From IMG/VR virus record IMGVR_UViG_2684623189_000001: DNA of 16,012 bases, one strand, 5' to 3'. Position numbers and translations under genes: made by a program. The notes below the pieces were generated by a model. It was not told where the DNA came from and did not search any database. It was given only the letters and a program-made list of their open reading frames with translations. This DNA is from a virus (taxonomy: Monodnaviria > Loebvirae > Hofneiviricota > Faserviricetes > Tubulavirales > Inoviridae). Below are positions 1 to 16,012 of this stretch, piece after piece; the stretch's first letter is position 1, and each line of letters opens with the position of its first letter.

Positions 1-1
1 T

Positions 2-145
2 GACTTTGCCAGAATGATTCCGGCAGCACTGGATAACGTGAAGACTTCATTACCGACAGATTTTCCGGAGAACGTGGTGACGGCAGTTGAAACCAATGTG
101 TTGAGGTTGCACGGTCGGTTAAGCCGAGAATACGGTATTAAGTAA
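2..145 (+). CDS. 3' end of a flanking (probably host) gene, partial; product unknown
   Basis: Frame open from the window edge for 47 codons (…LRLHGRLSREYGIK) to TAA at 143-145. It lies outside the repeated unit. Short, so the open frame is only weakly significant. Confidence 0.3.
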   Translation, partial: DFARMIPAALDNVKTSLPTDFPENVVTAVETNVLRLHGRLSREYGIK

Positions 146-223
146 GATATGGGGTTTTGGTCGTTGTTAATGAGCAGAACAATCATGAACCGCCAACGAC
201 TGGATTCTCCCTTGGTTTATGTT

Positions 224-256
224 GGTGCGCATAATGTACGACTCGTTATGTTGAAA
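224..256 (+). other. dif-like XerC/XerD recombination site at the chromosome-prophage junction (attL-type)
   Basis: GGTGCGCATAA (224-234) matches the XerC-binding arm of the enterobacterial dif site as I recall it, followed by TGTA. After an 11-nt spacer (TGTACGACTCG) comes TTATGTTGAAA (246-256), which resembles the XerD arm TTATGTTAAAT. It sits exactly at the repeat boundary. Confidence 0.6.
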
Positions 257-257
257 A

Positions 258-289
258 GGCCGCTGCGAAAATCGTATCCCGCAGCGGCC
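258..289. terminator. GC-rich hairpin, probable bidirectional rho-independent terminator
   Basis: Perfect 10-bp inverted repeat GGCCGCTGCG / CGCAGCGGCC with a 12-nt loop. On the minus strand it is followed by TTTTCAACAT, downstream of the 159-aa gene; on the plus strand by TCTTT. Confidence 0.55.
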
Positions 290-320
290 TCTTTAGCATA
301 ACGTCATTGTGCGAACCAAT

Positions 321-800
321 TTATATAGAAATGAAAAACTCCTCTTCATTCCTTTTTTTATAATTATCATCCCATATAAGTTTTATTCGGTATTTAGTTT
401 TACTTCCAAAGCTTAGTCCCGCTAAAATTTCAATCCCATGTTGCGGGTGTAATACTTCATATGGAAATTTATCTTCTACATCATGCATGAAAAGATATTC
501 ATTGCCATCGTTATCAGGGAAATGAATTTCTATATTTTTAGCCTCAACTTTCCCTCTATTAAATATCTTGAGTCTATAGTTGTTTTTGGCTATTTTTACG
601 AGGCGGGCACCAAGCTCAGCCTTCATCTCATTAATTGCTGACTTTGTTTCTTTTTCTAGAAGCAACTTACGTAACCTGTCTTGCTCATCCTTTATAACCT
701 TTTGTTCTCTATCACTTTTTCTCGACTTCACTTCTGATGATATGATAGTGTAAATCGATACTACAAGCGCAGCTAAAGCGATGGCATCACTCGTTGTCAT
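321..800 (-). CDS. Hypothetical single-pass membrane protein (N-terminal TM helix, charged helical linker, C-terminal ~90-aa domain); cargo gene
   Basis: 159-aa ORF. N-terminal hydrophobic helix AIALAALVVSIYTIISS, then a K/E/R-rich stretch. Start ATG overlaps the stop of the upstream 91-aa ORF (TAATG); AGGA ribosome-binding site. Markedly AT-rich. No recognisable family. Confidence 0.65.
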   Translation of the reverse strand: MTTSDAIALAALVVSIYTIISSEVKSRKSDREQKVIKDEQDRLRKLLLEKETKSAINEMKAELGARLVKIAKNNYRLKIFNRGKVEAKNIEIHFPDNDGNEYLFMHDVEDKFPYEVLHPQHGIEILAGLSFGSKTKYRIKLIWDDNYKKRNEEEFFISI

Positions 801-1075
801 TATTTAATCCTTATATTTTTACTTCCTTTAAATGCCTTTTTGAGCATATCATTAAACTGTTTTTGAATATCTTTTGTTAACTCTTCTTTTATCTCATCCA
901 CATGGGCGTCAATACTCACCCCGTTTTCTTGGATTAAATCATCATTAGTGAATTCTTTCCCGCAGCCTACACATCTGACGACTTCAGACTCTTCCTCGTG
1001 TTCCATCTCTGTATTTCCGCACACAGGACATAGCAGGGTGATATTTCTATTGTATTTCTCAGGATTTAGTTTCAT
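800..1075 (-). CDS. Hypothetical zinc-ribbon protein (CxxC…CxxC); cargo gene
   Basis: 91-aa ORF with CPVCG …(16 aa)… CVGCG, a C4 zinc-ribbon signature, then an acidic/basic helical tail. AGGAA ribosome-binding site 7 nt upstream. Translationally coupled to the 159-aa ORF. AT-rich. Confidence 0.65.
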   Translation of the reverse strand: MKLNPEKYNRNITLLCPVCGNTEMEHEEESEVVRCVGCGKEFTNDDLIQENGVSIDAHVDEIKEELTKDIQKQFNDMLKKAFKGSKNIRIK

Positions 1076-1103
1076 ATATTTCCTCTCTTCTACGTTTTAT
1101 TGA

Positions 1104-1526
1104 TTACCAGTAATATGAATTTCTTCTGTGCCACCAATAAAGCAGCCCGTATCCGATGATAAGAATTCCGAAAAACATCAACGACATTCCCCAGCCAGTT
1201 CCATACCACGAAACCATATCATCGAAAACCAATCCACCCGTTTCACGTACTCCGGCAGCTTCCTTAAGGATTGGTTTGAATACCGGAATCAGAAGGGCAA
1301 TCGCCAGTGGAGCACCCCAGCGAACAAGACCTGTTTCCATTTTGATCCCGAAAAAGATCCCCGCCCCGACAACAAGCAGCCAGACTATCAGGCCAGGCGC
1401 AGTTTCCAGTGCTGTTTGCCATTCAACATCGAAAGTTTTCATTAGCCAGGCAACAACTGCCAGGCAGAAAGCAAATACGCCGACGACAACCAGTTCAACG
1501 CCGCTTGTTTCGTTGTTTCTACTCAT
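1104..1526 (-). CDS. Hypothetical small integral membrane protein, about 4 TM helices
   Basis: 140-aa ORF with four hydrophobic segments (about aa 10-29, 45-61, 69-83, 113-133) and a W/Y/R-rich C-terminus. AAGGA ribosome-binding site. The opposite-strand ORFs here are low-complexity and implausible. Confidence 0.65.
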   Translation of the reverse strand: MSRNNETSGVELVVVGVFAFCLAVVAWLMKTFDVEWQTALETAPGLIVWLLVVGAGIFFGIKMETGLVRWGAPLAIALLIPVFKPILKEAAGVRETGGLVFDDMVSWYGTGWGMSLMFFGILIIGYGLLYWWHRRNSYYW

Positions 1527-1570
1527 CCTTTTGATCCTTTTTCACTGTTCAAAATTCGCACAATAAAGAA

Positions 1571-1595
1571 CGTGCAGTGTTGGTAATACTGCACG
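1571..1595. terminator. Hairpin between the repressor gene and the cargo genes; putative terminator or attenuator
   Basis: CGTGCAGT / ACTGCACG, 8-bp perfect stem with a 9-nt loop. T-rich on both sides (TTTGTCTCATT on plus, TTCTTTATTG on minus). A second small hairpin GTCTCA-ttcc-TGAGAC lies at 1599-1614. Confidence 0.45.
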
Positions 1596-1625
1596 TTTGT
1601 CTCATTCCTGAGACTGTTAATCCTT

Positions 1626-2072
1626 TTACTCTTCTCCAGACACCGCTTTTTTCATAAACATTTTAGTACTGTAAGTGTATGAACTTAAGGCAGAAACCTG
1701 CCTTGCGAGTGCCAGAATATCTTGTTTTTCCAGTGTCCTGATGTTCCACACGATGAAATTATGTGCGTTAGTGGTTTCTTCATCAGTATATCCATCCGCA
1801 GAAGTGATTAGCTTCCGCTCGGTAGCTTCTTCTTTAACATCAAGAGCATAGCCATAAGCTAAGGTGTTTAAGTCTGCACCCGTAATTTTAGCTATCTGAA
1901 TGATGTCACTGAATTTAGGTTCAGTTTTGCCGGACGCTATCCTGACCAGCGTACTCACGCTAATGCCAGTCTTCTCGGCCAGTTCTTCATAAGTCGAGTG
2001 TTCCAGAATTACCTTTTTGATACGTTCTGCTCTCTGTTTGTCCGCCATAACTTCATGCTCATTGTTGCCCAT
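1626..2072 (-). CDS. XRE/Cro-C1-type helix-turn-helix transcriptional repressor (inovirus lysogeny repressor, RstR-like position)
   Basis: 148 aa. HTH signature YEELAEKTGISVSTLVRIASGKTEP. Divergently transcribed from the Rep gene, the arrangement seen in lysogenic inoviruses. Confidence 0.75.
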   Translation of the reverse strand: MGNNEHEVMADKQRAERIKKVILEHSTYEELAEKTGISVSTLVRIASGKTEPKFSDIIQIAKITGADLNTLAYGYALDVKEEATERKLITSADGYTDEETTNAHNFIVWNIRTLEKQDILALARQVSALSSYTYSTKMFMKKAVSGEE

Positions 2073-2243
2073 CTACTTGGCTCCATCTTAACAGTGGTTT
2101 TTCAATAGTTAGATTTGATGCTCATTTCTGACAATTTAAACATTGCAAATGTATTGACTGTCAGAACTGAGCATATTACATTGTGACCATTCAATCTGCT
2201 CACAAATGACTATTGACACATATTTTGATGGGTGTGACTACTT
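2073..2243. promoter_or_regulatory. Divergent promoter/operator region between repressor and Rep
   Basis: 171-bp AT-rich intergenic region. -35-like hexamers TTGACT (2154-2159) and TTGACA (2213-2218). Inverted repeats TTCTGACA (2126-2133) / TGTCAGAA (2159-2166) and ACATT-GCA-AATGT; recurring TGAC motifs. Confidence 0.5.
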
Positions 2244-3296
2244 ATGATCGACTGGTTTACCGGAATCCTGCCTTGCACACACCGACCGTTACCGGCTGGT
2301 AGTGTCGTCAGCGTCGATGCTGACGGTGCAGTGGAGTGGGAAACAGTAAAACGGTTGACCGTTCGCGGTTCGCATGAGTCCACAATGAAAGTAAGGTCTG
2401 TTGGATCTGATGGTGAAGGTCGGGCAACACATCTCTACATTGACGGTAATCCATCAAAGTTTTTGCAAGGTCACTCTGTTATCGGTTCCGACGATTTGCA
2501 AGGGTTGGTGTTAACAGCTTACGCCAGAATATTGGCATTACTGCATATTCCTCATGATCTACCATCCTATCGGCAGGTCATGGAAGGGCAATTTAAGATC
2601 TCGCGCATCGATATCAATTACATGTATTCATTGTCAACATTAGAAAATGTCCGCGCATGGTTATATGCCGCAGAATTTAAAGCTAAAACTCGCCACGGTC
2701 GCGCCTGTGGTAAAGGTGGCACTGTTTACTTAGGGAAAAACTCCCGTCGTTGGAGCCTGAAATTTTATTCAAAATATGATGAGCATACATCTGGCAAAAA
2801 AGGGCACCAGATGGCAGACGAATTCGTTAAAGCTGGTTTACTGGACTGGTCAAAAGATAAATTACGCATTGAATTAACATTAAGAACAACTGAATTAATT
2901 GATTTGAATCTTACGCTTGGTAATAGCTGGAATATTGAGACGCCCAATAAATTATTCTCTGACTATGTAGGGAGAATAGAAATGAATCAAAATACTATAT
3001 TAACTGATGAAAAAATAATTAATCTCCCAAGAAAAATACAGTCTACATATTTATTGTGGAAGCAGGGCGCGAACATGAAAGAGATGTTACCGAAACCTAC
3101 ATTCTACCGACACCGTAAAGAATTACTTTCTTTCGGAATAGATATTAACTTTTATTGTGAGTCACCGGATTCTAATAACGTTGTTCCGTTGGTTCGTACT
3201 CTTGAAGCCAAACCAGCCAAAATTCCATCATGGGTTTATGAGAAAGGTTTAATTTTCGATTATAACCGTATTTCACATGCCAGTAACTGGCATTAA
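2244..3296 (+). CDS. Rolling-circle replication initiation protein (Rep_trans / pII-like)
   Basis: 350 aa. Motif GTVYLGKNSRRWSLKFYSKYDE fits the Rep_trans-type pattern with catalytic Tyr. First gene of the plus-strand module, as in inoviruses. Confidence 0.75.
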   Translation: MIDWFTGILPCTHRPLPAGSVVSVDADGAVEWETVKRLTVRGSHESTMKVRSVGSDGEGRATHLYIDGNPSKFLQGHSVIGSDDLQGLVLTAYARILALLHIPHDLPSYRQVMEGQFKISRIDINYMYSLSTLENVRAWLYAAEFKAKTRHGRACGKGGTVYLGKNSRRWSLKFYSKYDEHTSGKKGHQMADEFVKAGLLDWSKDKLRIELTLRTTELIDLNLTLGNSWNIETPNKLFSDYVGRIEMNQNTILTDEKIINLPRKIQSTYLLWKQGANMKEMLPKPTFYRHRKELLSFGIDINFYCESPDSNNVVPLVRTLEAKPAKIPSWVYEKGLIFDYNRISHASNWH

Positions 3297-3307: not shown

Positions 3308-3625
3308 ATGTCTAATTATGGTCTTTTTGTAAAAGGTAAAATGCTTGGTGCTCGCCAGCGTAATAAGGTCAATGGTCAGGGATACTATAATGAAATTGGT
3401 GTTGGCTTAGAGATTCCTGATGGTTTTGGCGGCACTAAGCAAGACCAGATTATTATTCGTGTATCTCAGGCTCTTGTTAATGCCGGTGTAATGAATCAGG
3501 CAAATAATTTTATCGGTAAGTTAGTCCAGATACCTGTATATGTTCGCGTCTGGTCAATGGAGGGGAGGGAAGGAGTAACTTATAACATTTCATCAGATGG
3601 CGGCATTACTGAAATAAAAGGCTGA
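3308..3625 (+). CDS. Putative ssDNA-binding protein (pV/RstB-like by position)
   Basis: 105 aa. Strong AAGGAG ribosome-binding site. Immediately downstream of Rep; Gly-rich, beta-type composition. Function is inferred from synteny only. Confidence 0.5.
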   Translation: MSNYGLFVKGKMLGARQRNKVNGQGYYNEIGVGLEIPDGFGGTKQDQIIIRVSQALVNAGVMNQANNFIGKLVQIPVYVRVWSMEGREGVTYNISSDGGITEIKG

Positions 3626-3627
3626 TT

Positions 3628-3913: not shown

Positions 3914-4147
3914 ATGTTTAAAAAAATCGTTAGTTTTCTGGCTGTACCTGCATTAATGGCTGTTTCTGGCGCGACTTTCGCTGCAGAAGGAGCGGCATCA
4001 AGTGGTGTTGATTTATCGCCGCTGACGAACAGCATTGATTTCAGTACAGTTCTGGTTGCGATTATGGCCGTTGCTGCTTCACTGGTAACACTTTATGCCG
4101 GTGTCGCTGGCGTTCGCTGGGTATTGCGTACCGTTAAATCCGCATAA
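3914..4147 (+). CDS. Major coat protein (pVIII-like)
   Basis: 77 aa. Signal peptide MFKKIVSFLAVPALMAVSGATFA with AxA cleavage motif. Mature part has an acidic N-terminus, a hydrophobic core and a basic C-terminus (RWVLRTVKSA). GGAG ribosome-binding site. Confidence 0.85.
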   Translation: MFKKIVSFLAVPALMAVSGATFAAEGAASSGVDLSPLTNSIDFSTVLVAIMAVAASLVTLYAGVAGVRWVLRTVKSA

Positions 4148-4211: not shown

Positions 4212-5924
4212 ATGGAAATTGGGTTCCCTTTTATGGGGGATCGTCTCAGCTTATGTCGTTATTCTTGGGCTAAGAGGCTGACGGTTTATTCCTTTATTTT
4301 TTCCTTTCTCTGGGTTTCCTTTCCCCGATATTCATATTCATTTGTACCAGCAATTGCAGCAGTGGCTGCGCGGGCTGTTATTCCTAAAGTCGTTGGCCGG
4401 GTGCTTGTTCGTCGCTTTGCTGCCAATGATGCGATTTATACGGCATCACAGCTTACAGCAACCCGTGTTTTTGTTGGCCGCGCTGCGGCTAATGCTGCCG
4501 AATACTTGCCTGCTGCCTCATCATACAAAATGAGCGGTGTTGCAACGTGGGCGGGTATTGCTGCTGCTGTATCATCTTTTGTTCCGTCTTCTTTGAGTTC
4601 ATCTGACGGCTCGGTAATGGTAATGACTAACGGTAAAAAGATTTCCGATAATTTATATGAAGTAACGTACAGTGGTCAAAGTGGTGAAAGTAAGACGATA
4701 ACCGTTAATTTTGAACCACAGGAATTAAGTCCGGTAATCCTTCATGTTAGTCGTAATAATGTGGATGCGGGTTCTCCAGTTGTAGGTGTTGAAACAGGAT
4801 ATTCCACGCCAGATAATGCACTTTATTATTATCAGGATTCGAAAGAGCTAATTTATTACTATGGTGATAATCCAACTGAAATTGCCAGAAATTATCTTAA
4901 TGACTATAACTCGCGTACTTATACTGAAACACTAACGAATTTTGAACGCACTGTGACGAATAAAGTTGTCAACAGTAATGGAGATGTATCCTTTACTGAA
5001 CAGAATTATAAGTTTACTTATCCTTCCTCATTTTATGAAATACCTGAGATTACACACTTGTATAGCAACCCGGCCGCATCTTCATTTCCCGCAGGTATTC
5101 CCATGTATGAAAATGTAGCAGGGCTTCCCATGTATTACAGCGTTGCTTATTTAACAGCAGGAAAGCAATATCAGTATCACAACACGCCTTGTAAAACGAC
5201 TAATCAGTCAAATGGTGGATATTCGACGATTTGTGCCGTTCCTGAAAAAGAGGATTACACCGCAAAAGATATTGATGAAAAGAGTGAGCTTACTATCTGG
5301 ACCAATACCAAATATAAAGCCATGACGGAAGTACTGGAGGCTGGAAATATTGAGTCCATGATTGATTATCTGGAGTATCTTGATAGTGTTAGTGTATCGC
5401 CAGCACTTCTTGCCGACATGATTAACGAGCTGTGGTCTGAAGCTGCCGTTAATGCCGATTATAACGGCTTACCGTTTAAAGAGGTTTCACCGGCTGAAGT
5501 AACTTCTGCGATGTCGGAACTTAGGCTATCTCCAACGTTATTAGATATGCTTTCACCTGTATCTGACAGTGCAGGGGCTGACGTCAATATTGATATTACC
5601 ATTAATAACAACTCAGGATCTGACACTGGAAATAATGGCAATATAGATTTGGGAGAAGATCCCGGTGTAAAAGAGCCTGAGCTTGAAGAAACGCCAACGG
5701 CAAGAGATATTTTAACGCCAATTATTAACTTGTTGCCTTTTACAAACGAATTTAACATCGGCTCTCGTTCAGCATCCTGCCCCGTTGTTGAATTCAGCGT
5801 GTTTAATCACCAGTACAGAATTGACTCCCATTGTCCGTTAATTGAGCAGAACAGAAGCGCCGTAGAAACCATATTTCTGATTATATGGGGATTTGTTGCG
5901 CTCCGTATTATTCTGAGTGCCTAA
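4212..5924 (+). CDS. Minor coat / adsorption protein (pIII-like); exact start uncertain
   Basis: 570 aa. Follows the major coat gene. Gly/Ser/Asn-rich linker (NNNSGSDTGNNGNIDLGEDPG) and C-terminal membrane anchor (IFLIIWGFVALRIILSA). N-terminus is atypical; alternative start at Met8 (4233). Confidence 0.65.
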   Translation: MEIGFPFMGDRLSLCRYSWAKRLTVYSFIFSFLWVSFPRYSYSFVPAIAAVAARAVIPKVVGRVLVRRFAANDAIYTASQLTATRVFVGRAAANAAEYLPAASSYKMSGVATWAGIAAAVSSFVPSSLSSSDGSVMVMTNGKKISDNLYEVTYSGQSGESKTITVNFEPQELSPVILHVSRNNVDAGSPVVGVETGYSTPDNALYYYQDSKELIYYYGDNPTEIARNYLNDYNSRTYTETLTNFERTVTNKVVNSNGDVSFTEQNYKFTYPSSFYEIPEITHLYSNPAASSFPAGIPMYENVAGLPMYYSVAYLTAGKQYQYHNTPCKTTNQSNGGYSTICAVPEKEDYTAKDIDEKSELTIWTNTKYKAMTEVLEAGNIESMIDYLEYLDSVSVSPALLADMINELWSEAAVNADYNGLPFKEVSPAEVTSAMSELRLSPTLLDMLSPVSDSAGADVNIDITINNNSGSDTGNNGNIDLGEDPGVKEPELEETPTARDILTPIINLLPFTNEFNIGSRSASCPVVEFSVFNHQYRIDSHCPLIEQNRSAVETIFLIIWGFVALRIILSA

Positions 5925-5936: not shown

Positions 5937-6224
5937 ATGTTTGGGATTCTGATTAGTGCATTAAATACTTTGTTAGGTTTTGTATTCCGGTCATTGATTA
6001 TTAAATTCGTCGTATTCTTTGCGCTGTATTTTGTAGTCCAGGGCTTCGTTGAAATCCTTGTTGAGTTACTGCCAGATTCAAGCAATCTCTCATCGCTGTT
6101 TGCCAATTTATCAGACGGATTCTGGTACTTCATTAACCTGAGTAAATTACCACAGGGGATTAGTATGATTATCTCCGCAATGGCTACTCGTTTTATTATT
6201 CGACGTATTCCTGTTATAGGGTGA
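5937..6224 (+). CDS. Minor coat protein (pVI-like)
   Basis: 95 aa, strongly hydrophobic. AAGGAG ribosome-binding site. Lies between the pIII-like and Zot/pI genes, as pVI does in inoviruses. Confidence 0.6.
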   Translation: MFGILISALNTLLGFVFRSLIIKFVVFFALYFVVQGFVEILVELLPDSSNLSSLFANLSDGFWYFINLSKLPQGISMIISAMATRFIIRRIPVIG

Positions 6225-6227: not shown

Positions 6228-7253
6228 ATGGCTATTTCTGCATATATTGGCATACCCGGCTCAGGAAAAAGTTATGAAGCCGTTTGCAATGTCATTATTC
6301 CGGCATTTACCAGCGGCCGGAGAGTTGTGACGAACATTTATGGTTTACAAAAAGATAAAATCACCGAACGTTATCCTGATGCAACGGGAGAAATTATTGT
6401 TGTGGATAATGATGATGTGCTTAAAGCAGATTTCTTTCCTTTTAAAGGTGGGGAAGGGAGCTTTTGCCAGTTTGGTGATTTAATTGTTATTGATGAAGCA
6501 TGGCGAATCTTCGGTAGCGATAAGGATATGACGGCTGAGAAGAAATCATTTATTGCTGAACATCGTCATTTTACGCACCCTGAAACGGGTATTAGCTGTG
6601 ATTTGGTTATTGTAAATCAGTCACTTTCTAATATTGCTCGCTTTCTGAAAGACAAAATAGAAACAACTTACCGGATGCGCAAGCTGAAAGCGTTGGGCCT
6701 GAATAATCATTACTGCATTGACGTATATTCAGGCCACAAAATCTATAAAAGCAACCTCGTCACCAGTTATCGCAATAAATATAACCCTGATATTTTTGAA
6801 CTTTACAAAAGTTATGAAGGAAATAACGGTAATGAAAAGCAGACAGATAAACGCCAGAGCATCTGGAATTCTGGCAAAGTCAGGTTCTTTCTTGTGCTTT
6901 TTCCATTGATGTTTATCGGGTCAGGCTGGCTGATTTACTCATTTTTCAGCACGTTTGGCCGAAGCGATCCCTCGCCAGATTTGACTACAACAGATGTACG
7001 TGATGCGGCCATGTTTCGTTCTTCCGCTGCTACTCCAGCACCAGATACTCCCTCAGAACCAGCTGAACCGCCACTTTCAACCGAGTGGCGTATATCAGGG
7101 AGAATGACCAGTGAAGGCAGGGCGTTTGTGATTCTTGTTAATGGTGCCGGTGTTTTGCGTGCCGTTCCTGCATCCAGTTTTAATTACAAAGGGATGTTGA
7201 TGAGCGGAATTATTGATGGTGAGCGTGTGACGCTTTATACGGGGAAAAAATAA
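6228..7253 (+). CDS. Zot / pI-family morphogenesis (assembly) ATPase
   Basis: 341 aa. Walker A GIPGSGKSY, Walker B LIVIDEAW, single TM segment (VRFFLVLFPLMFIGSGWLIYSFF) followed by a periplasmic C-terminal region. Confidence 0.85.
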   Translation: MAISAYIGIPGSGKSYEAVCNVIIPAFTSGRRVVTNIYGLQKDKITERYPDATGEIIVVDNDDVLKADFFPFKGGEGSFCQFGDLIVIDEAWRIFGSDKDMTAEKKSFIAEHRHFTHPETGISCDLVIVNQSLSNIARFLKDKIETTYRMRKLKALGLNNHYCIDVYSGHKIYKSNLVTSYRNKYNPDIFELYKSYEGNNGNEKQTDKRQSIWNSGKVRFFLVLFPLMFIGSGWLIYSFFSTFGRSDPSPDLTTTDVRDAAMFRSSAATPAPDTPSEPAEPPLSTEWRISGRMTSEGRAFVILVNGAGVLRAVPASSFNYKGMLMSGIIDGERVTLYTGKK

Positions 7254-8497
7254 TGAAAAAGATTTTACTCGCATTAACGCTACTATTTTCTTCATGTGCT
7301 TTCGCAGGGTCAGAGCTTGAATTAAATAAAGTCAAGCTACCGGAGGCTATTTCTCTTATTTACAGTGAGGTGCTTAAAGTCCCGTATATGCTAGATCCAC
7401 AGCTTGTTAATGATGAACGAATGATTACATTCAGGTTAACACCTGATATTGATGAACGGGAATTTGTAACCCGTTATCTTGGCAATATGAACATTCGAAT
7501 ATGGACGAAAAAGGGTGTTGATTTTATCGCGCCCTATACGCCGAAAGAGCCGGTTAAGCCACGTTATACATGGACTTATACGCCTCAGTACCGTTCTGTT
7601 GCCTACCTGTCTGATATTCTTGGCGGCTACGTTTCAGGCTCCTTCAATAACAGTGGAGCCGTGATTTCTGACGATTCGCTAAAAGGTTCATCAGGGGCAA
7701 GCAACTACATCAATCGAACCGGTGATATTCTGGTTTATTATGGTACGAAAGAGGATATCGCCATCCTGAAAACACTGGTCACTTCGCTGGATACGATGAG
7801 TGATGAAGTGGTTGTTTCTGGTTATGTTTTTGAGGTTCAGACCTCGCAGTCTGACGGCTCCGGCATTCTTTTAGCGGCTAAAATTCTGTCTGATAAATTC
7901 AATATTTCAGTTGGTGCTGCCGGACTGGATAATTTTATCAATATTCGAACCGGCTCCATTGATGCCATTTTCAATCTGCTGAAAACCGACAGTCGTTTTA
8001 CTGTTGTCAGTGCGCCACGACTGCGGGTAAAAAATAATGCCTCAGCGTCTTTTTCAGTCGGCTCTGATGTGCCAGTACTGGGCAGTGTTACGGTGAATAA
8101 CAATACGACAACGCAATCCGTTGAATATCGTTCCAGCGGTGTTTTGTTTAACGTGACGCCATCAATCAAAAGTCGGACAATGGATCTCAAGATTCAGCAG
8201 CAGCTTTCCAACTTTGTGACCACTGAAACCGGCGTCAATAACTCGCCAACCCTTATCAAGCGTGATGTAACAACCGAAGTCAGCCTTGCAGATGGTGATA
8301 TTATTTTACTTGGTGGCCTTGCTGAACAGAAAGACAGTAAGGCCAGTTCCGGCTGGAGCTTCTTCGGTTCCCGTACCAGTGAAAGCAACAAGACTGATAT
8401 TATGGTGATGCTTCAGGTCAGAAAGGTTGACCGGAGCAGGGCGACGCCCCGCAGCGCCGCGAGGAGCGGTGAACTGTTCCGGGACAACCTGAACTGA
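7253..8497 (+). CDS. pIV-type secretin (phage export channel)
   Basis: 414 aa. Signal peptide MKKILLALTLLFSSCAFA. C-terminal secretin-like region (VVSAPRLRV…VPVLGSV…DGDIILLGGLAE). Start overlaps the Zot/pI stop (TAATG). Confidence 0.8.
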   Translation: MKKILLALTLLFSSCAFAGSELELNKVKLPEAISLIYSEVLKVPYMLDPQLVNDERMITFRLTPDIDEREFVTRYLGNMNIRIWTKKGVDFIAPYTPKEPVKPRYTWTYTPQYRSVAYLSDILGGYVSGSFNNSGAVISDDSLKGSSGASNYINRTGDILVYYGTKEDIAILKTLVTSLDTMSDEVVVSGYVFEVQTSQSDGSGILLAAKILSDKFNISVGAAGLDNFINIRTGSIDAIFNLLKTDSRFTVVSAPRLRVKNNASASFSVGSDVPVLGSVTVNNNTTTQSVEYRSSGVLFNVTPSIKSRTMDLKIQQQLSNFVTTETGVNNSPTLIKRDVTTEVSLADGDIILLGGLAEQKDSKASSGWSFFGSRTSESNKTDIMVMLQVRKVDRSRATPRSAARSGELFRDNLN

Positions 8498-8585: not shown

Positions 8586-8834
8586 ATGTCTGTAAAAAAT
8601 AAGGCGCGTGACCGACTTCCCGGTGGCCGCCTTAAGTCTTATCGTCGTGTAGGTTCACATTTTGCCAGTTGTGCCAGATGGTTTGATAAATCGCCGTCCT
8701 GGTATCGCAATATGATGATGACCAGGCCTGAGCGTCGTGAAGTCAGAAGGCTTCTCAATCAGGTAATGCGTGGTCATGATGCTGACGGCATTGCTTTTCC
8801 GGTCAGTCATCGTCCGTTTGTTTATTGGTGGTGA
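8586..8834 (+). CDS. Hypothetical small basic protein
   Basis: 82 aa, Arg/Trp-rich. GAGG ribosome-binding site 8 nt upstream. In the accessory region between secretin and att site. No family recognised. Confidence 0.45.
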   Translation: MSVKNKARDRLPGGRLKSYRRVGSHFASCARWFDKSPSWYRNMMMTRPERREVRRLLNQVMRGHDADGIAFPVSHRPFVYWW

Positions 8835-9018
8835 ATTTCGTACGCACGAAATTTCACGCATAAACACCAGACAAAAAATCGTTAACTGTCTGTTTTGAAA
8901 GATAACGCCGGTCAGTGACAAAACTTGTTTTGTTGCTGTCCGGGGTTGGCCAAGCCGTACAGTTTCCATTTTCAGCGTTATGGCTGATTCGGCGCGGCAG
9001 CATTCATCGGGGCTTATC

Positions 9019-9228
9019 ATGGAAAAATTCATGACACATCAGGAGCTGAAAGTGATGCTTCTTAAAGATCCAGCATTCCGGGCTGCTTATGAAGCTGAGA
9101 GCCAGAACCCGCAATCCGGTTACCAGATTATCCGGCATCATGGTGATGGCACTGAAGAAGTGGTGTTTGATTCTCGTGTATCAGGTACAGATTTACCAAC
9201 TAACTGGATGAACAGGCCTGATTGGTGA
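9019..9228 (+). CDS. Hypothetical small protein (ORF track places the start at 8980; 9019 preferred)
   Basis: About 69 aa from the ATG at 9019, which has a GGGG ribosome-binding site. N-terminal motif ELKVMLLKDPAFRAAYEA. Last gene before the att site. Confidence 0.4.
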   Translation: MEKFMTHQELKVMLLKDPAFRAAYEAESQNPQSGYQIIRHHGDGTEEVVFDSRVSGTDLPTNWMNRPDW

Positions 9229-9434: not shown

Positions 9435-9465
9435 TCTTTAGCATAACGTCATTGTGCGAACCAAT

Positions 9466-9945
9466 TTATATAGAAATGAAAAACTCCTCTTCATTCCTTT
9501 TTTTATAATTATCATCCCATATAAGTTTTATTCGGTATTTAGTTTTACTTCCAAAGCTTAGTCCCGCTAAAATTTCAATCCCATGTTGCGGGTGTAATAC
9601 TTCATATGGAAATTTATCTTCTACATCATGCATGAAAAGATATTCATTGCCATCGTTATCAGGGAAATGAATTTCTATATTTTTAGCCTCAACTTTCCCT
9701 CTATTAAATATCTTGAGTCTATAGTTGTTTTTGGCTATTTTTACGAGGCGGGCACCAAGCTCAGCCTTCATCTCATTAATTGCTGACTTTGTTTCTTTTT
9801 CTAGAAGCAACTTACGTAACCTGTCTTGCTCATCCTTTATAACCTTTTGTTCTCTATCACTTTTTCTCGACTTCACTTCTGATGATATGATAGTGTAAAT
9901 CGATACTACAAGCGCAGCTAAAGCGATGGCATCACTCGTTGTCAT
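9466..9945 (-). CDS. Hypothetical single-pass membrane protein, cargo gene (copy 2)
   Basis: Identical translation to 321-800 at offset +9145. Confidence 0.65.
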   Translation of the reverse strand: MTTSDAIALAALVVSIYTIISSEVKSRKSDREQKVIKDEQDRLRKLLLEKETKSAINEMKAELGARLVKIAKNNYRLKIFNRGKVEAKNIEIHFPDNDGNEYLFMHDVEDKFPYEVLHPQHGIEILAGLSFGSKTKYRIKLIWDDNYKKRNEEEFFISI

Positions 9946-10220
9946 TATTTAATCCTTATATTTTTACTTCCTTTAAATGCCTTTTTGAGCATATCATTAA
10001 ACTGTTTTTGAATATCTTTTGTTAACTCTTCTTTTATCTCATCCACATGGGCGTCAATACTCACCCCGTTTTCTTGGATTAAATCATCATTAGTGAATTC
10101 TTTCCCGCAGCCTACACATCTGACGACTTCAGACTCTTCCTCGTGTTCCATCTCTGTATTTCCGCACACAGGACATAGCAGGGTGATATTTCTATTGTAT
10201 TTCTCAGGATTTAGTTTCAT
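9945..10220 (-). CDS. Hypothetical zinc-ribbon protein, cargo gene (copy 2)
   Basis: Identical translation to 800-1075. Confidence 0.65.
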   Translation of the reverse strand: MKLNPEKYNRNITLLCPVCGNTEMEHEEESEVVRCVGCGKEFTNDDLIQENGVSIDAHVDEIKEELTKDIQKQFNDMLKKAFKGSKNIRIK

Positions 10221-10248
10221 ATATTTCCTCTCTTCTACGTTTTATTGA

Positions 10249-10671
10249 TTACCAGTAATATGAATTTCTTCTGTGCCACCAATAAAGCAGCCCGTATCCG
10301 ATGATAAGAATTCCGAAAAACATCAACGACATTCCCCAGCCAGTTCCATACCACGAAACCATATCATCGAAAACCAATCCACCCGTTTCACGTACTCCGG
10401 CAGCTTCCTTAAGGATTGGTTTGAATACCGGAATCAGAAGGGCAATCGCCAGTGGAGCACCCCAGCGAACAAGACCTGTTTCCATTTTGATCCCGAAAAA
10501 GATCCCCGCCCCGACAACAAGCAGCCAGACTATCAGGCCAGGCGCAGTTTCCAGTGCTGTTTGCCATTCAACATCGAAAGTTTTCATTAGCCAGGCAACA
10601 ACTGCCAGGCAGAAAGCAAATACGCCGACGACAACCAGTTCAACGCCGCTTGTTTCGTTGTTTCTACTCAT
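10249..10671 (-). CDS. Hypothetical 4-TM membrane protein (copy 2)
   Basis: Identical translation to 1104-1526. Confidence 0.65.
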   Translation of the reverse strand: MSRNNETSGVELVVVGVFAFCLAVVAWLMKTFDVEWQTALETAPGLIVWLLVVGAGIFFGIKMETGLVRWGAPLAIALLIPVFKPILKEAAGVRETGGLVFDDMVSWYGTGWGMSLMFFGILIIGYGLLYWWHRRNSYYW

Positions 10672-10715
10672 CCTTTTGATCCTTTTTCACTGTTCAAAAT
10701 TCGCACAATAAAGAA

Positions 10716-10740
10716 CGTGCAGTGTTGGTAATACTGCACG
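10716..10740. terminator. Hairpin between repressor and cargo genes (copy 2)
   Basis: Identical to 1571-1595. Confidence 0.45.
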
Positions 10741-10770
10741 TTTGTCTCATTCCTGAGACTGTTAATCCTT

Positions 10771-11217
10771 TTACTCTTCTCCAGACACCGCTTTTTTCAT
10801 AAACATTTTAGTACTGTAAGTGTATGAACTTAAGGCAGAAACCTGCCTTGCGAGTGCCAGAATATCTTGTTTTTCCAGTGTCCTGATGTTCCACACGATG
10901 AAATTATGTGCGTTAGTGGTTTCTTCATCAGTATATCCATCCGCAGAAGTGATTAGCTTCCGCTCGGTAGCTTCTTCTTTAACATCAAGAGCATAGCCAT
11001 AAGCTAAGGTGTTTAAGTCTGCACCCGTAATTTTAGCTATCTGAATGATGTCACTGAATTTAGGTTCAGTTTTGCCGGACGCTATCCTGACCAGCGTACT
11101 CACGCTAATGCCAGTCTTCTCGGCCAGTTCTTCATAAGTCGAGTGTTCCAGAATTACCTTTTTGATACGTTCTGCTCTCTGTTTGTCCGCCATAACTTCA
11201 TGCTCATTGTTGCCCAT
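10771..11217 (-). CDS. XRE-type HTH repressor (copy 2)
   Basis: Identical translation to 1626-2072. Confidence 0.75.
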   Translation of the reverse strand: MGNNEHEVMADKQRAERIKKVILEHSTYEELAEKTGISVSTLVRIASGKTEPKFSDIIQIAKITGADLNTLAYGYALDVKEEATERKLITSADGYTDEETTNAHNFIVWNIRTLEKQDILALARQVSALSSYTYSTKMFMKKAVSGEE

Positions 11218-11388
11218 CTACTTGGCTCCATCTTAACAGTGGTTTTTCAATAGTTAGATTTGATGCTCATTTCTGACAATTTAAACATTGCAAATGTATT
11301 GACTGTCAGAACTGAGCATATTACATTGTGACCATTCAATCTGCTCACAAATGACTATTGACACATATTTTGATGGGTGTGACTACTT
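11218..11388. promoter_or_regulatory. Divergent promoter/operator region (copy 2)
   Basis: Identical to 2073-2243. Confidence 0.5.
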
Positions 11389-12441
11389 ATGATCGACTGG
11401 TTTACCGGAATCCTGCCTTGCACACACCGACCGTTACCGGCTGGTAGTGTCGTCAGCGTCGATGCTGACGGTGCAGTGGAGTGGGAAACAGTAAAACGGT
11501 TGACCGTTCGCGGTTCGCATGAGTCCACAATGAAAGTAAGGTCTGTTGGATCTGATGGTGAAGGTCGGGCAACACATCTCTACATTGACGGTAATCCATC
11601 AAAGTTTTTGCAAGGTCACTCTGTTATCGGTTCCGACGATTTGCAAGGGTTGGTGTTAACAGCTTACGCCAGAATATTGGCATTACTGCATATTCCTCAT
11701 GATCTACCATCCTATCGGCAGGTCATGGAAGGGCAATTTAAGATCTCGCGCATCGATATCAATTACATGTATTCATTGTCAACATTAGAAAATGTCCGCG
11801 CATGGTTATATGCCGCAGAATTTAAAGCTAAAACTCGCCACGGTCGCGCCTGTGGTAAAGGTGGCACTGTTTACTTAGGGAAAAACTCCCGTCGTTGGAG
11901 CCTGAAATTTTATTCAAAATATGATGAGCATACATCTGGCAAAAAAGGGCACCAGATGGCAGACGAATTCGTTAAAGCTGGTTTACTGGACTGGTCAAAA
12001 GATAAATTACGCATTGAATTAACATTAAGAACAACTGAATTAATTGATTTGAATCTTACGCTTGGTAATAGCTGGAATATTGAGACGCCCAATAAATTAT
12101 TCTCTGACTATGTAGGGAGAATAGAAATGAATCAAAATACTATATTAACTGATGAAAAAATAATTAATCTCCCAAGAAAAATACAGTCTACATATTTATT
12201 GTGGAAGCAGGGCGCGAACATGAAAGAGATGTTACCGAAACCTACATTCTACCGACACCGTAAAGAATTACTTTCTTTCGGAATAGATATTAACTTTTAT
12301 TGTGAGTCACCGGATTCTAATAACGTTGTTCCGTTGGTTCGTACTCTTGAAGCCAAACCAGCCAAAATTCCATCATGGGTTTATGAGAAAGGTTTAATTT
12401 TCGATTATAACCGTATTTCACATGCCAGTAACTGGCATTAA
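11389..12441 (+). CDS. Rolling-circle replication initiation protein (copy 2)
   Basis: Identical translation to 2244-3296. Confidence 0.75.
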   Translation: MIDWFTGILPCTHRPLPAGSVVSVDADGAVEWETVKRLTVRGSHESTMKVRSVGSDGEGRATHLYIDGNPSKFLQGHSVIGSDDLQGLVLTAYARILALLHIPHDLPSYRQVMEGQFKISRIDINYMYSLSTLENVRAWLYAAEFKAKTRHGRACGKGGTVYLGKNSRRWSLKFYSKYDEHTSGKKGHQMADEFVKAGLLDWSKDKLRIELTLRTTELIDLNLTLGNSWNIETPNKLFSDYVGRIEMNQNTILTDEKIINLPRKIQSTYLLWKQGANMKEMLPKPTFYRHRKELLSFGIDINFYCESPDSNNVVPLVRTLEAKPAKIPSWVYEKGLIFDYNRISHASNWH

Positions 12442-12452
12442 AGGAGAGTGAT

Positions 12453-12770
12453 ATGTCTAATTATGGTCTTTTTGTAAAAGGTAAAATGCTTGGTGCTCGC
12501 CAGCGTAATAAGGTCAATGGTCAGGGATACTATAATGAAATTGGTGTTGGCTTAGAGATTCCTGATGGTTTTGGCGGCACTAAGCAAGACCAGATTATTA
12601 TTCGTGTATCTCAGGCTCTTGTTAATGCCGGTGTAATGAATCAGGCAAATAATTTTATCGGTAAGTTAGTCCAGATACCTGTATATGTTCGCGTCTGGTC
12701 AATGGAGGGGAGGGAAGGAGTAACTTATAACATTTCATCAGATGGCGGCATTACTGAAATAAAAGGCTGA
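12453..12770 (+). CDS. Putative ssDNA-binding protein (copy 2)
   Basis: Identical translation to 3308-3625. Confidence 0.5.
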   Translation: MSNYGLFVKGKMLGARQRNKVNGQGYYNEIGVGLEIPDGFGGTKQDQIIIRVSQALVNAGVMNQANNFIGKLVQIPVYVRVWSMEGREGVTYNISSDGGITEIKG

Positions 12771-12772
12771 TT

Positions 12773-13024
12773 ATGGATGCATCAGGTTTCGATATTCAGT
12801 TTGATAATCATATTCCTGAAAATGGTTACCGTATTGAAGGTTATTTATGTAATGCGAACAATGCAAAAGAATGTCAGGCAATAATGGTACGTTCTGAACC
12901 ATTTCATCAAATTGATTATTCTGCAATGGGAAATTACTGGACATTAGGTTTTGGCTCTGTCCTGCTGCTCTGGCTTTTTTCTGTAGGTGTGGGACAGGTA
13001 ATAAAGATGGTTCGTACTGCTTGA
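12773..13024 (+). CDS. Hypothetical small membrane protein (copy 2)
   Basis: Identical translation to 3628-3879. Confidence 0.4.
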   Translation: MDASGFDIQFDNHIPENGYRIEGYLCNANNAKECQAIMVRSEPFHQIDYSAMGNYWTLGFGSVLLLWLFSVGVGQVIKMVRTA

Positions 13025-13058
13025 ATGCGAACCTTTAAAATGTAATGGAGATAGAGTT

Positions 13059-13292
13059 ATGTTTAAAAAAATCGTTAGTTTTCTGGCTGTACCTGCATTA
13101 ATGGCTGTTTCTGGCGCGACTTTCGCTGCAGAAGGAGCGGCATCAAGTGGTGTTGATTTATCGCCGCTGACGAACAGCATTGATTTCAGTACAGTTCTGG
13201 TTGCGATTATGGCCGTTGCTGCTTCACTGGTAACACTTTATGCCGGTGTCGCTGGCGTTCGCTGGGTATTGCGTACCGTTAAATCCGCATAA
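13059..13292 (+). CDS. Major coat protein (copy 2)
   Basis: Identical translation to 3914-4147. Confidence 0.85.
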   Translation: MFKKIVSFLAVPALMAVSGATFAAEGAASSGVDLSPLTNSIDFSTVLVAIMAVAASLVTLYAGVAGVRWVLRTVKSA

Positions 13293-13356
13293 ATTCATTA
13301 TTCATGGGCGATGCAATATCGCCCGTTTTACTTGAGGTTATTATGGAGATTGAATT

Positions 13357-15069
13357 ATGGAAATTGGGTTCCCTTTTATGGGGGATCGTCTCAGCTTATG
13401 TCGTTATTCTTGGGCTAAGAGGCTGACGGTTTATTCCTTTATTTTTTCCTTTCTCTGGGTTTCCTTTCCCCGATATTCATATTCATTTGTACCAGCAATT
13501 GCAGCAGTGGCTGCGCGGGCTGTTATTCCTAAAGTCGTTGGCCGGGTGCTTGTTCGTCGCTTTGCTGCCAATGATGCGATTTATACGGCATCACAGCTTA
13601 CAGCAACCCGTGTTTTTGTTGGCCGCGCTGCGGCTAATGCTGCCGAATACTTGCCTGCTGCCTCATCATACAAAATGAGCGGTGTTGCAACGTGGGCGGG
13701 TATTGCTGCTGCTGTATCATCTTTTGTTCCGTCTTCTTTGAGTTCATCTGACGGCTCGGTAATGGTAATGACTAACGGTAAAAAGATTTCCGATAATTTA
13801 TATGAAGTAACGTACAGTGGTCAAAGTGGTGAAAGTAAGACGATAACCGTTAATTTTGAACCACAGGAATTAAGTCCGGTAATCCTTCATGTTAGTCGTA
13901 ATAATGTGGATGCGGGTTCTCCAGTTGTAGGTGTTGAAACAGGATATTCCACGCCAGATAATGCACTTTATTATTATCAGGATTCGAAAGAGCTAATTTA
14001 TTACTATGGTGATAATCCAACTGAAATTGCCAGAAATTATCTTAATGACTATAACTCGCGTACTTATACTGAAACACTAACGAATTTTGAACGCACTGTG
14101 ACGAATAAAGTTGTCAACAGTAATGGAGATGTATCCTTTACTGAACAGAATTATAAGTTTACTTATCCTTCCTCATTTTATGAAATACCTGAGATTACAC
14201 ACTTGTATAGCAACCCGGCCGCATCTTCATTTCCCGCAGGTATTCCCATGTATGAAAATGTAGCAGGGCTTCCCATGTATTACAGCGTTGCTTATTTAAC
14301 AGCAGGAAAGCAATATCAGTATCACAACACGCCTTGTAAAACGACTAATCAGTCAAATGGTGGATATTCGACGATTTGTGCCGTTCCTGAAAAAGAGGAT
14401 TACACCGCAAAAGATATTGATGAAAAGAGTGAGCTTACTATCTGGACCAATACCAAATATAAAGCCATGACGGAAGTACTGGAGGCTGGAAATATTGAGT
14501 CCATGATTGATTATCTGGAGTATCTTGATAGTGTTAGTGTATCGCCAGCACTTCTTGCCGACATGATTAACGAGCTGTGGTCTGAAGCTGCCGTTAATGC
14601 CGATTATAACGGCTTACCGTTTAAAGAGGTTTCACCGGCTGAAGTAACTTCTGCGATGTCGGAACTTAGGCTATCTCCAACGTTATTAGATATGCTTTCA
14701 CCTGTATCTGACAGTGCAGGGGCTGACGTCAATATTGATATTACCATTAATAACAACTCAGGATCTGACACTGGAAATAATGGCAATATAGATTTGGGAG
14801 AAGATCCCGGTGTAAAAGAGCCTGAGCTTGAAGAAACGCCAACGGCAAGAGATATTTTAACGCCAATTATTAACTTGTTGCCTTTTACAAACGAATTTAA
14901 CATCGGCTCTCGTTCAGCATCCTGCCCCGTTGTTGAATTCAGCGTGTTTAATCACCAGTACAGAATTGACTCCCATTGTCCGTTAATTGAGCAGAACAGA
15001 AGCGCCGTAGAAACCATATTTCTGATTATATGGGGATTTGTTGCGCTCCGTATTATTCTGAGTGCCTAA
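13357..15069 (+). CDS. pIII-like adsorption protein (copy 2)
   Basis: Identical translation to 4212-5924. Confidence 0.65.
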   Translation: MEIGFPFMGDRLSLCRYSWAKRLTVYSFIFSFLWVSFPRYSYSFVPAIAAVAARAVIPKVVGRVLVRRFAANDAIYTASQLTATRVFVGRAAANAAEYLPAASSYKMSGVATWAGIAAAVSSFVPSSLSSSDGSVMVMTNGKKISDNLYEVTYSGQSGESKTITVNFEPQELSPVILHVSRNNVDAGSPVVGVETGYSTPDNALYYYQDSKELIYYYGDNPTEIARNYLNDYNSRTYTETLTNFERTVTNKVVNSNGDVSFTEQNYKFTYPSSFYEIPEITHLYSNPAASSFPAGIPMYENVAGLPMYYSVAYLTAGKQYQYHNTPCKTTNQSNGGYSTICAVPEKEDYTAKDIDEKSELTIWTNTKYKAMTEVLEAGNIESMIDYLEYLDSVSVSPALLADMINELWSEAAVNADYNGLPFKEVSPAEVTSAMSELRLSPTLLDMLSPVSDSAGADVNIDITINNNSGSDTGNNGNIDLGEDPGVKEPELEETPTARDILTPIINLLPFTNEFNIGSRSASCPVVEFSVFNHQYRIDSHCPLIEQNRSAVETIFLIIWGFVALRIILSA

Positions 15070-15081
15070 AGGAGTGCAACT

Positions 15082-15369
15082 ATGTTTGGGATTCTGATTA
15101 GTGCATTAAATACTTTGTTAGGTTTTGTATTCCGGTCATTGATTATTAAATTCGTCGTATTCTTTGCGCTGTATTTTGTAGTCCAGGGCTTCGTTGAAAT
15201 CCTTGTTGAGTTACTGCCAGATTCAAGCAATCTCTCATCGCTGTTTGCCAATTTATCAGACGGATTCTGGTACTTCATTAACCTGAGTAAATTACCACAG
15301 GGGATTAGTATGATTATCTCCGCAATGGCTACTCGTTTTATTATTCGACGTATTCCTGTTATAGGGTGA
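15082..15369 (+). CDS. pVI-like minor coat protein (copy 2)
   Basis: Identical translation to 5937-6224. Confidence 0.6.
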   Translation: MFGILISALNTLLGFVFRSLIIKFVVFFALYFVVQGFVEILVELLPDSSNLSSLFANLSDGFWYFINLSKLPQGISMIISAMATRFIIRRIPVIG

Positions 15370-15372
15370 GTT

Positions 15373-16012
15373 ATGGCTATTTCTGCATATATTGGCATAC
15401 CCGGCTCAGGAAAAAGTTATGAAGCCGTTTGCAATGTCATTATTCCGGCATTTACCAGCGGCCGGAGAGTTGTGACGAACATTTATGGTTTACAAAAAGA
15501 TAAAATCACCGAACGTTATCCTGATGCAACGGGAGAAATTATTGTTGTGGATAATGATGATGTGCTTAAAGCAGATTTCTTTCCTTTTAAAGGTGGGGAA
15601 GGGAGCTTTTGCCAGTTTGGTGATTTAATTGTTATTGATGAAGCATGGCGAATCTTCGGTAGCGATAAGGATATGACGGCTGAGAAGAAATCATTTATTG
15701 CTGAACATCGTCATTTTACGCACCCTGAAACGGGTATTAGCTGTGATTTGGTTATTGTAAATCAGTCACTTTCTAATATTGCTCGCTTTCTGAAAGACAA
15801 AATAGAAACAACTTACCGGATGCGCAAGCTGAAAGCGTTGGGCCTGAATAATCATTACTGCATTGACGTATATTCAGGCCACAAAATCTATAAAAGCAAC
15901 CTCGTCACCAGTTATCGCAATAAATATAACCCTGATATTTTTGAACTTTACAAAAGTTATGAAGGAAATAACGGTAATGAAAAGCAGACAGATAAACGCC
16001 AGAGCATCTGGA
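15373..16012 (+). CDS. Zot/pI-family assembly ATPase, 5' portion (copy 2, truncated by window end)
   Basis: Starts at 6228+9145 with the same sequence, including the Walker A motif. No stop before the window ends. Confidence 0.8.
   Translation, partial: MAISAYIGIPGSGKSYEAVCNVIIPAFTSGRRVVTNIYGLQKDKITERYPDATGEIIVVDNDDVLKADFFPFKGGEGSFCQFGDLIVIDEAWRIFGSDKDMTAEKKSFIAEHRHFTHPETGISCDLVIVNQSLSNIARFLKDKIETTYRMRKLKALGLNNHYCIDVYSGHKIYKSNLVTSYRNKYNPDIFELYKSYEGNNGNEKQTDKRQSIW

Follow-up and report, generated by a model that had tools for sequence, protein, structure and literature searches.

The left attachment site of a tandem CUS-1/YpfΦ-type filamentous prophage at the Escherichia coli dif locus and its probable CTX-type Xer route

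Related phages and the identity of the element

The closest described relatives of the element analysed here are the filamentous phages YpfΦ of Yersinia pestis and CUS-1 of Escherichia coli O18:K1:H7, reportedly described by Gonzalez 2002 and Derbise 2007, and its attachment region is compared below with that of CTXφ of Vibrio cholerae, a CTX-type member of the integrative mobile elements that exploit Xer (IMEXs; Val et al. 2005). The stretch in question, called the window throughout, is the whole 16,012 nt of IMG/VR virus record IMGVR_UViG_2684623189_000001 (Inoviridae), and the site under study lies at its positions 224-256. This site is very probably attL of a pair of tandem CUS-1/YpfΦ-type filamentous prophages at the E. 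coli dif site beside hipA, established by a CTX-type Xer route.

YpfΦ inserts at dif, leaves a regenerated, intact dif at its 3' end and builds arrays of 2-4 tandem copies, and its encapsidated genome contains paired inverted XerC/XerD sites that may act like the CTXφ site (PMC4266046). Reviews class YpfΦ and CUS-1Φ among the CTX-type Xer-exploiting elements (PMC4246890, PMC3089051). In CTXφ the attP1 site has a central region of 12 bp and attP2 one of 5-7 bp (PMC4246890, PMC3089051), and the XerD arm of attP1 is TTATGTTGAGG (PMC3089051). Integration of CTXφ uses single-stranded DNA (ssDNA), with catalysis by XerC only and completion by replication, and is irreversible, as the fold does not persist in duplex DNA (PMC4246890, PMC3089051, PMC3442271). 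The VGJφ-type and TLCφ/gonococcal genetic island (GGI)-type IMEXs likewise use host XerCD and dif with no integrase of their own, but their attP is one duplex site of 28-29 bp whose centre measures 6-7 bp, and their integration is reversible (PMC4246890), whereas the window has 11- and 5-bp spacers and an inverted partner site. The UPΦ phages of Enterobacterales are also dif-integrating tandem inoviruses with genes II and V related to those of YpfΦ, but their other genes are of the Lineavirus (IKe/I2-2) type and they share <30% amino-acid (aa) identity with YpfΦ overall (PMC7307601); membership of the window phage in this group was considered and rejected, as core comparison places it in the YpfΦ lineage.

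From the repressor to the right end (1546-9368), and in the attachment hairpin described below, the window matches the Y. pestis NCTC5923 prophage at 99.7% identity, and window 1103-9368 is 99.5% identical to the UTI89 prophage. The attP hairpin of YpfΦ/CUS-1 is the same as that of the window except for one loop base. Membership of the lineage calls for a near-identical core, with ~99% nucleotide identity over ~7.1 kb of regulation, replication and assembly genes, and the identities just given agree with this; the core is present in 119 of 5426 complete E. coli genomes, at a median of 2 and a maximum of 5 places per genome. When the whole unit was compared by megablast with the GenBank phage collection, nothing matched, and identity was therefore set through E. 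coli genomes and the Y. pestis contig; the lineage has evidently not been deposited as a phage record in that collection. These comparisons place the element within the already described CUS-1/YpfΦ lineage, which it resembles in dif insertion, tandem copies and an intact dif at the 3' end. It differs in the cargo beside attL, where the module at 322-1102 is neither the YPO2271/2272 pair nor the 369-aa open reading frame (ORF) of UTI89.

The attachment region at the native dif locus

The window opens in hipA, and the insertion locus is therefore the native E. coli hipA-dif locus. In MG1655, hipA is followed after ~76 nt by dif, which has the same orientation and a flank shared with the window. 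An empty site reconstructed from the hipA flank, dif and the right flank occurs with 100% identity in genomes free of the phage, ATCC 11775 among them, is covered over at least 80% of its length in 781 genomes, and contains the canonical 28-bp dif. Over 20 kb to either side of the MG1655 dif, GC skew is -0.007 and -0.039 respectively and keeps its sign at that scale; as this is uninformative, placement at the terminus rests on the canonical hipA-dif locus and on established knowledge of dif.

A 33-nt string, GGTGCGCATAA-TGTACGACTCG-TTATGTTGAAA, occurs at 224-256 and again at 9369-9401. The sequence-only reading of this DNA had matched the XerC arm and the adjoining TGTA to dif, and this holds exactly: all 11 arm positions agree, and arm plus TGTA give 15 contiguous bases that agree with the start of E. 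coli dif (GGTGCGCATAATGTATATTATGTTAAAT). The exact XerC arm occurs at only two positions in the window (224 and 9369). That reading had also seen a resemblance to the XerD arm in the right part of the site. Here the arm by itself, though it agrees with dif at 9 of 11 positions, is not above chance (18 matches with ≤2 mismatches in the window, 12.9 expected), but the composite site, defined as an XerC arm (≤1 mismatch), 4-12 nt and an XerD arm (≤2 mismatches), is found twice in the window and in none of 500 shuffles. Homology to the dif centre is confined to the XerC side, where TGTA is common to both before TGTACGACTCG departs from TGTATA.

The repeat period of 9145 bp corresponds to one prophage unit, and copies 1 and 2 show no differences over the 6644 nt of overlap available in the window. 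When the left boundary is aligned with the copy-copy junction, identity starts 2 nt to the left of the XerC arm, so that host DNA lies to the left of 222 and phage DNA to the left of 9367. The recurrence of the site at 9369-9401 with prophage sequence on its left, as had been described, is thus borne out. A full dif (≤3 mismatches) was not found within the window, because the window ends inside copy 2.

A second dif-like site, in inverted orientation, is present on the minus strand at 317-291 and reads GGTTCGCACAA-TGACG-TTATGCTAAAG. Together the two sites define a phage attachment region of 94 nt (224-317) with 34 nt between them. The plus strand of 215-325 is predicted to fold as ssDNA at -30.5 kcal/mol (z = -7.6), with none of 200 shuffles as stable, and the 94-nt core to form a forked hairpin at -27.5 kcal/mol (z = -8.1). 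In the predicted fold the two XerC arms pair with each other, as do the XerD-like arm and its counterpart, leaving an asymmetric 11-nt/5-nt bubble at the centre, and four divergent natural variants are predicted to keep the fold of the window core. The layout is that of a CTXφ-type attP(+). The long, atypical spacer noted previously does exist as an 11-nt centre, but rather than marking a stand-alone dif variant it is the attP1-like long central region of one half of a two-site structure. The inverted partner (291-317) and the stem-loop between the sites (257-290) had been overlooked. The attachment site is predicted to be functional only in folded plus-strand ssDNA; as duplex, the spacers of 11 bp (224-256) and 5 bp (291-317) fall outside the 6-8 bp spacing that XerCD needs.

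The layout agrees with CTXφ in having two inverted dif-like sites and no integrase, a long centre (12 nt in CTXφ, 11 nt in the window), a short centre (5-7 nt and 5 nt), a plus-strand forked hairpin (predicted in the window), dif homology at the XerC arm only, a functional dif regenerated on one side, tandem arrays and a divergent repressor. It differs in the host and its dif sequence, in the absence of cholera toxin from the window phage, which has its own pIV secretin, and in dimensions, the CTXφ hairpin being ~150 nt with ~90 nt between the sites, as against ~94 nt and 34 nt here.

Hairpin regions were collected from IMG/VR contigs and from GTDB species representatives (loci are numbered with L below). 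The hairpin, of 94-97 nt, is 93-99% identical in Enterobacterales inoviruses with cores as little as 66-80% identical to that of the window (L006, L007, L012, L018, L021, L022, L025, among them contigs of Lelliottia, Phytobacter and Erwinia), and it is likewise conserved in Kosakonia and IMG/VR contigs. Among 14 distinct variants the variable columns number 8 of 12 in the loop, 1 of 22 in the stem and none of 11 in the XerD arm; the long central region has a single variable column of 11, at position 4, the only one to differ among relatives; four columns vary in the left XerC arm and these are the host-derived ones. The near-invariance of the partner site and the stem across such diverged cores argues for selection on the whole hairpin.

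This conservation bears on the possibility that the duplex replicative form recombines with dif through 224-256 by XerC exchange, as in VGJφ, with the inverted site irrelevant. Such a route would fit the match of the XerC arm and the first four central bases to dif, which is also seen in VGJ-type attP sites (PMC4246890), and a circular duplex form does exist in cells (the TUM14759 episome, below). However, site 1 has an 11-bp spacer, and imposing a 6-bp spacing turns its "XerD arm" into ACTCGTTATGT, a sequence that resembles no XerD arm; VGJφ-type sites are single, 29 bp long and have a 7-bp centre (PMC4246890), whereas those in the window are paired, inverted and have 11/5-bp centres; and an irrelevant partner sits poorly with the near-invariance of both partner and stem across cores of 66-80% identity. 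We consider a VGJφ-type route very unlikely. A TLCφ/GGI-type route, in which the XerD arm is degenerate and XerD makes the first exchange with the help of a Xer activation factor encoded by the phage, seems less probable still and can hardly be entertained. The XerD side of site 1 is degenerate at 6-bp spacing and in this superficially resembles the TLCφ attP (PMC5357621), but for XerD to act first the homology must lie on the XerD side (PMC4246890) and the dif-centre homology here is on the XerC side only, no ORF matched the Xer-activation-factor family in Pfam scans, the hairpin partner is conserved, and the dif-like centre characteristic of the class is not present.

Junctions in other genomes and the probable integration route

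The near-identical locus of E. coli FDAARGOS_1299 (L001), for which a RefSeq annotation is available, contains a two-copy array as in the window, and its right end reads ...CCTTACCATT GGTGCGCATAA TGTATA TTATGTTAAAT, a perfect 28-bp dif following the phage right end. UTI89 has one copy, with attL as in the window and a perfect dif at attR. Both attL and attR could be read in L001, L004, L006, L007, L009 and L011, with the hybrid site on the left and dif on the right. The sequence-only reading had proposed an integrase-less inovirus exploiting XerCD at dif, and the native hipA-dif locus, the gene set and the dif regenerated in near-identical genomes all agree with this. It had allowed that an intact dif elsewhere with this locus far from the terminus, or a phage-type integrase immediately outside the window, would speak against its proposal. 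The dif found is at the right end of the array in near-identical genomes, where the model predicts it, at what is the native dif locus, and in L001 no recombinase is annotated by RefSeq in the array, in ~20 kb of left flank or in ~2 kb of right flank.

In E. coli TUM14759 a 9565-bp circular "untypable plasmid" (NZ_CP128883.1; L003) carries attP flanked by phage sequence on both sides. This circle is an episomal replicative form of the phage lineage with an intact attP, and copies are also carried by the chromosome of the same strain, beside the episome (H49).

In the collected contexts the arms at copy-copy junctions and at attR are always GGTGCGCATAA, and left-junction XerC arms include AGTGCGCATAA (L006, L010 and L016), AGTACGCATAA (L015), GATGCGCATAA (L017), GGAGCGCATAA (Kosakonia, L020) and GGTGCACATAA (Y. 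pestis, L026). Both ends are on one contig in L006, where the attL arm is AGTGCGCATAA and attR consists of GGTGCGCATAA followed by TGTATATTATGTTAAAT. A phage-specific fourth central base (TGTG) is kept in L017 (at attL) and in the TUM14759 episome. The host-type arms at attL and the retained TGTG together place the exchange between arm position 6 and central position 4, an interval that spans the XerC cleavage point; XerC cleaves between the arm and the central region (PMC4246890).

Several of the collected contexts are unusual. In L020 (Kosakonia oryziphila; reverse-strand position 521) the hairpin beside the GGAGCGCATAA arm diverges inside the loop and has no inverted partner, and is presumably a decayed or interrupted remnant. 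L024 is assigned to a Candidatus Nanosynbacter metagenome-assembled genome (MAG) and has ~25 nt of E. coli dif-proximal flank joined to the prophage left end, including the same cargo start; sequence farther upstream differs from the hipA-side flank of the window, and mis-binning of enterobacterial DNA into the MAG is the most likely source of the contig. The Y. pestis left flank (L026, 3022-3061) resembles the phage right end (window 9329-9368) with a score of 14, the maximum among a null set of 3000 random host 40-mers being 11, and these 40 nt may have been left behind by a related element that once occupied dif. For the corresponding E. coli flank a right-end relic was also considered and rejected, its similarity not being significant (score 2, p = 0.81).

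By analogy with CTXφ, a route for integration can be outlined. The two sites would pair in the packaged plus strand to give an XerC-arm duplex, an 11/5-nt bubble and an XerD-arm duplex, and host XerC and XerD would bind the folded structure. XerC would swap one strand with dif, the shared TGTA beside the XerC arm stabilising the exchange, and the resulting pseudo-Holliday junction would be turned into prophage by replication. The left product would combine a host XerC arm with the phage 11-nt centre and be non-functional, and the right product would combine the phage XerC arm with the host TGTATA-TTATGTTAAAT and be a functional dif. A second phage genome entering the regenerated dif would give rise to the copy-copy junction at 9369, and pII would drive rolling-circle replication across the tandem array to supply new phage DNA. 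Excision by Xer would not be expected because the fold is lost in duplex DNA. Irreversibility had previously been ascribed, tentatively, to the atypical spacing; the 11-bp and 5-bp spacers probably contribute, but on the CTXφ analogy loss of the fold in duplex DNA is needed as well (PMC4246890). An ssDNA substrate, XerC-only catalysis, resolution by replication and irreversibility are thus carried over from CTXφ to this locus by inference.

All of the sequence-level predictions of the CTX-type route hold at this locus. The sites are paired and inverted, the duplex spacing is unusable, homology is on the XerC side, the left hybrid is dead and a dif is regenerated on the right; furthermore, left arms are host-specific and the copy-copy junction is identical to attP.

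There is some question as to the origin of copy 2, as the site at 224-256 might have served for the first integration only, with the second copy and the 9369 junction arising by homologous recombination or by replication of resident DNA. Superinfecting YpfΦ reportedly favours insertion between the copies already resident, perhaps through homologous recombination (PMC4266046). The identity of the copies over 6644 nt and the coexistence of episomal and chromosomal copies in TUM14759 (H32, H49) are also in keeping with this origin, although the junction is exactly as would follow from a second Xer integration into the regenerated dif, and both routes yield one product. We regard this alternative origin as rather unlikely, and it touches only copy 2 and not the nature of the site.

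A number of points weigh against the CTX-type route as set out here. The reported preference of YpfΦ for insertion between resident copies means that copy 2 need not stem from a second Xer event. In its folding the minus strand comes close to the plus strand (z = -6.6), so that the fold alone cannot name the substrate strand; we infer that the plus strand is the packaged one from the orientation of the morphogenesis genes, by the usual rule for inoviruses, and the assignment depends on that orientation. The hairpin is too invariant for compensatory base changes, and the changes seen are one-sided and pairing-compatible only. The right end of the window's own array lies outside the window and is taken from near-identical genomes. 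Finally, Xer dependence and ssDNA integration have been demonstrated for CTXφ, whereas for the CUS-1/YpfΦ lineage the mechanism is called "proposed" in the literature found (PMC4266046), and Xer dependence and ssDNA use are accordingly attributed to the present locus by analogy. With these points taken into account, a CTX-type route into dif is still the reading that we very much favour.

Gene content, cargo and the attachment hairpin as a candidate module

The coordinates of the features are listed in Table 1. The element has an inovirus gene set without a recombinase of its own; Pfam scans found no tyrosine or serine recombinase domain in any substantial ORF of the unit, and none is annotated in the L001 array, in agreement with what had been read from the ORFs before. 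For the repressor, YPO2273 of Y. pestis is described as an RstR homologue, and for the pIII-like protein a description of the puvA gene of CUS-1 is available (PMC4266046). The ORF at the pIII position encodes 570 aa as called in the window, and the RefSeq start in the identical L001 sequence is 150 nt further inward (window 4362), giving 520 aa.

Table 1. Features of the window and the basis for their assignment
Position	Strand	Feature	Basis or remark
1..145	+	Host hipA, 3' end	RefSeq hipA end in the near-identical L001 locus corresponds to window 145; MG1655 hipA-dif arrangement alike
146..223		Host intergenic flank, hipA to dif, 78 nt	Continuous with dif in phage-free genomes
224..234	+	XerC-binding arm GGTGCGCATAA	11/11 against E. 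coli dif; attL arm host-derived, copy at 9369-9379 phage-derived
235..245	+	attP1-like 11-nt central region TGTACGACTCG	First 4 nt, TGTA, equal the XerC side of the dif centre TGTATA
246..256	+	XerD-like arm TTATGTTGAAA	9/11 against dif
257..290		Apical stem-loop, perfect 11-bp G+C-rich stem, 12-nt loop	Fold predictions
291..317	-	Inverted attP2-like site GGTTCGCACAA-TGACG-TTATGCTAAAG, 5-nt centre	Pairs with 224-256 in the predicted ssDNA fold
321..1075	-	159-aa ORF and 91-aa zinc-ribbon ORF (ECs_2282 family)	Variable cargo beside attL
1104..1526	-	140-aa conserved hypothetical ORF	phrog_4174; in UTI89, not in Y. pestis
1626..2072	-	HTH_3 repressor, divergently transcribed	RstR position and orientation; Pfam HTH_3 1.6e-09; phrog_3557 transcriptional regulator
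2244..3296	+	pII replication initiator, rolling-circle nickase	Pfam Phage_CRI 1.2e-73, G2P_X_C 3.6e-34
3308..3625	+	G5P ssDNA-binding protein	Pfam Putative_G5P 1.2e-52
3914..4147	+	Major coat protein	phrog_2186 virion structural protein 4e-29; weak Pfam Phage_Coat_B
4212..5924	+	pIII-like adsorption protein	phrog_3942 4.5e-253; role from position in gene order
5937..6224	+	pVI-like minor coat protein	Pfam DUF2523 1e-20
6228..7253	+	Assembly ATPase pI / Zot	Pfam Zot 2.2e-26
7253..8497	+	pIV secretin	Pfam Secretin 1.3e-24
8586..9228	+	Two small ORFs beside attR	phrog_6642; position of YPO2280a and YPO2281 (PMC4266046)
9369..9462	+	Second attP hairpin copy at the copy-copy junction, phage right end on its left	Circular episome L003 arranged alike
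9463..16012	+	Second prophage copy; window ends at unit position 6867	0 differences from copy 1 in the overlap

The region beside attL is known to be variable in the CUS-1/YpfΦ lineage (PMC4266046). In the window the cargo starts directly after the end of the inverted site (GAACCAA), at position 322, and the segment 322-1545 is repeated at 9467-10690. UTI89 has the single 369-aa ORF in place of the 159-aa and 91-aa ORFs; Y. pestis homology to the window begins at 1546, its cargo being the YPO2271/2272 pair; and the TUM14759 episome has yet another block beside attL. The window-type cargo variant (322-1102) is present in at least 20 complete E. coli genomes. No convincing function was found for the cargo ORFs in Pfam, PHROGs or PADLOC, and zinc-ribbon matches are weak and below cut-off.

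Comparison of the window with the L001 array reveals 25 differing positions per copy, all of them in three minus-strand ORFs within 366-1515, so that the cargo block is ~2% diverged and the remainder of the unit identical. These differences amount to 3 amino-acid changes (12 nucleotide differences and 2 amino-acid changes for the 159-aa and 91-aa ORFs), and the small number suggests that the three ORFs are real genes under purifying selection. The pattern also suggests that the block at 366-1515 has an ancestry separate from the rest of the unit, through recombination or hybrid-phage formation.

The G+C-rich apical stem at 257-290 lies just downstream of the leftward cargo operon and is followed by T-rich sequence on both strands. 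A consensus scan for intrinsic terminators makes no call there, because the 12-nt loop exceeds its loop-length limit; the stem might double as a transcription terminator.

Unrelated cargo always starts directly after the last base of the hairpin. On the reverse strand of L017, at 666 and 5612, there are two different tandem elements 4946 nt apart, each with a hairpin; one has a CUS-1/YpfΦ-like core (99.2%), and the other is short and diverged, with only 66-75% similarity in pI and pIV segments. L017 is thus a heterologous array, and such arrays could generate hybrid phages. It is conceivable, and we put it forward only tentatively, that the attP hairpin is a portable module, with hairpin and cargo swapped between lineages through heterologous dif arrays and the edge of the hairpin acting as an exchange hotspot; hybrid phages would arise by rolling-circle replication across the junction of heterologous tandem arrays at dif. 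If true, this would extend to the present lineage the hybrid-genome idea already published for CTXφ.

Integration at dif by this lineage was already known, and the accepted picture is unchanged. The comparative data, namely attL arms specific to the host, arms and stem that stay invariant where the loop varies, and an episomal replicative form whose attP is intact, lend sequence-level support to the proposed XerC crossover point and to selection on the whole hairpin. Annotations should describe the locus as a tandem CUS-1/YpfΦ-type prophage that sits at dif and has a CTX-type attP hairpin, and not as a new dif variant. Links between the lineage and fitness or virulence have been made for extraintestinal pathogenic E. 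coli (ExPEC) and for third-pandemic Y. pestis (PMC4266046), and recognition of both the lineage and its variable cargo in E. coli genomes would be of epidemiological use.

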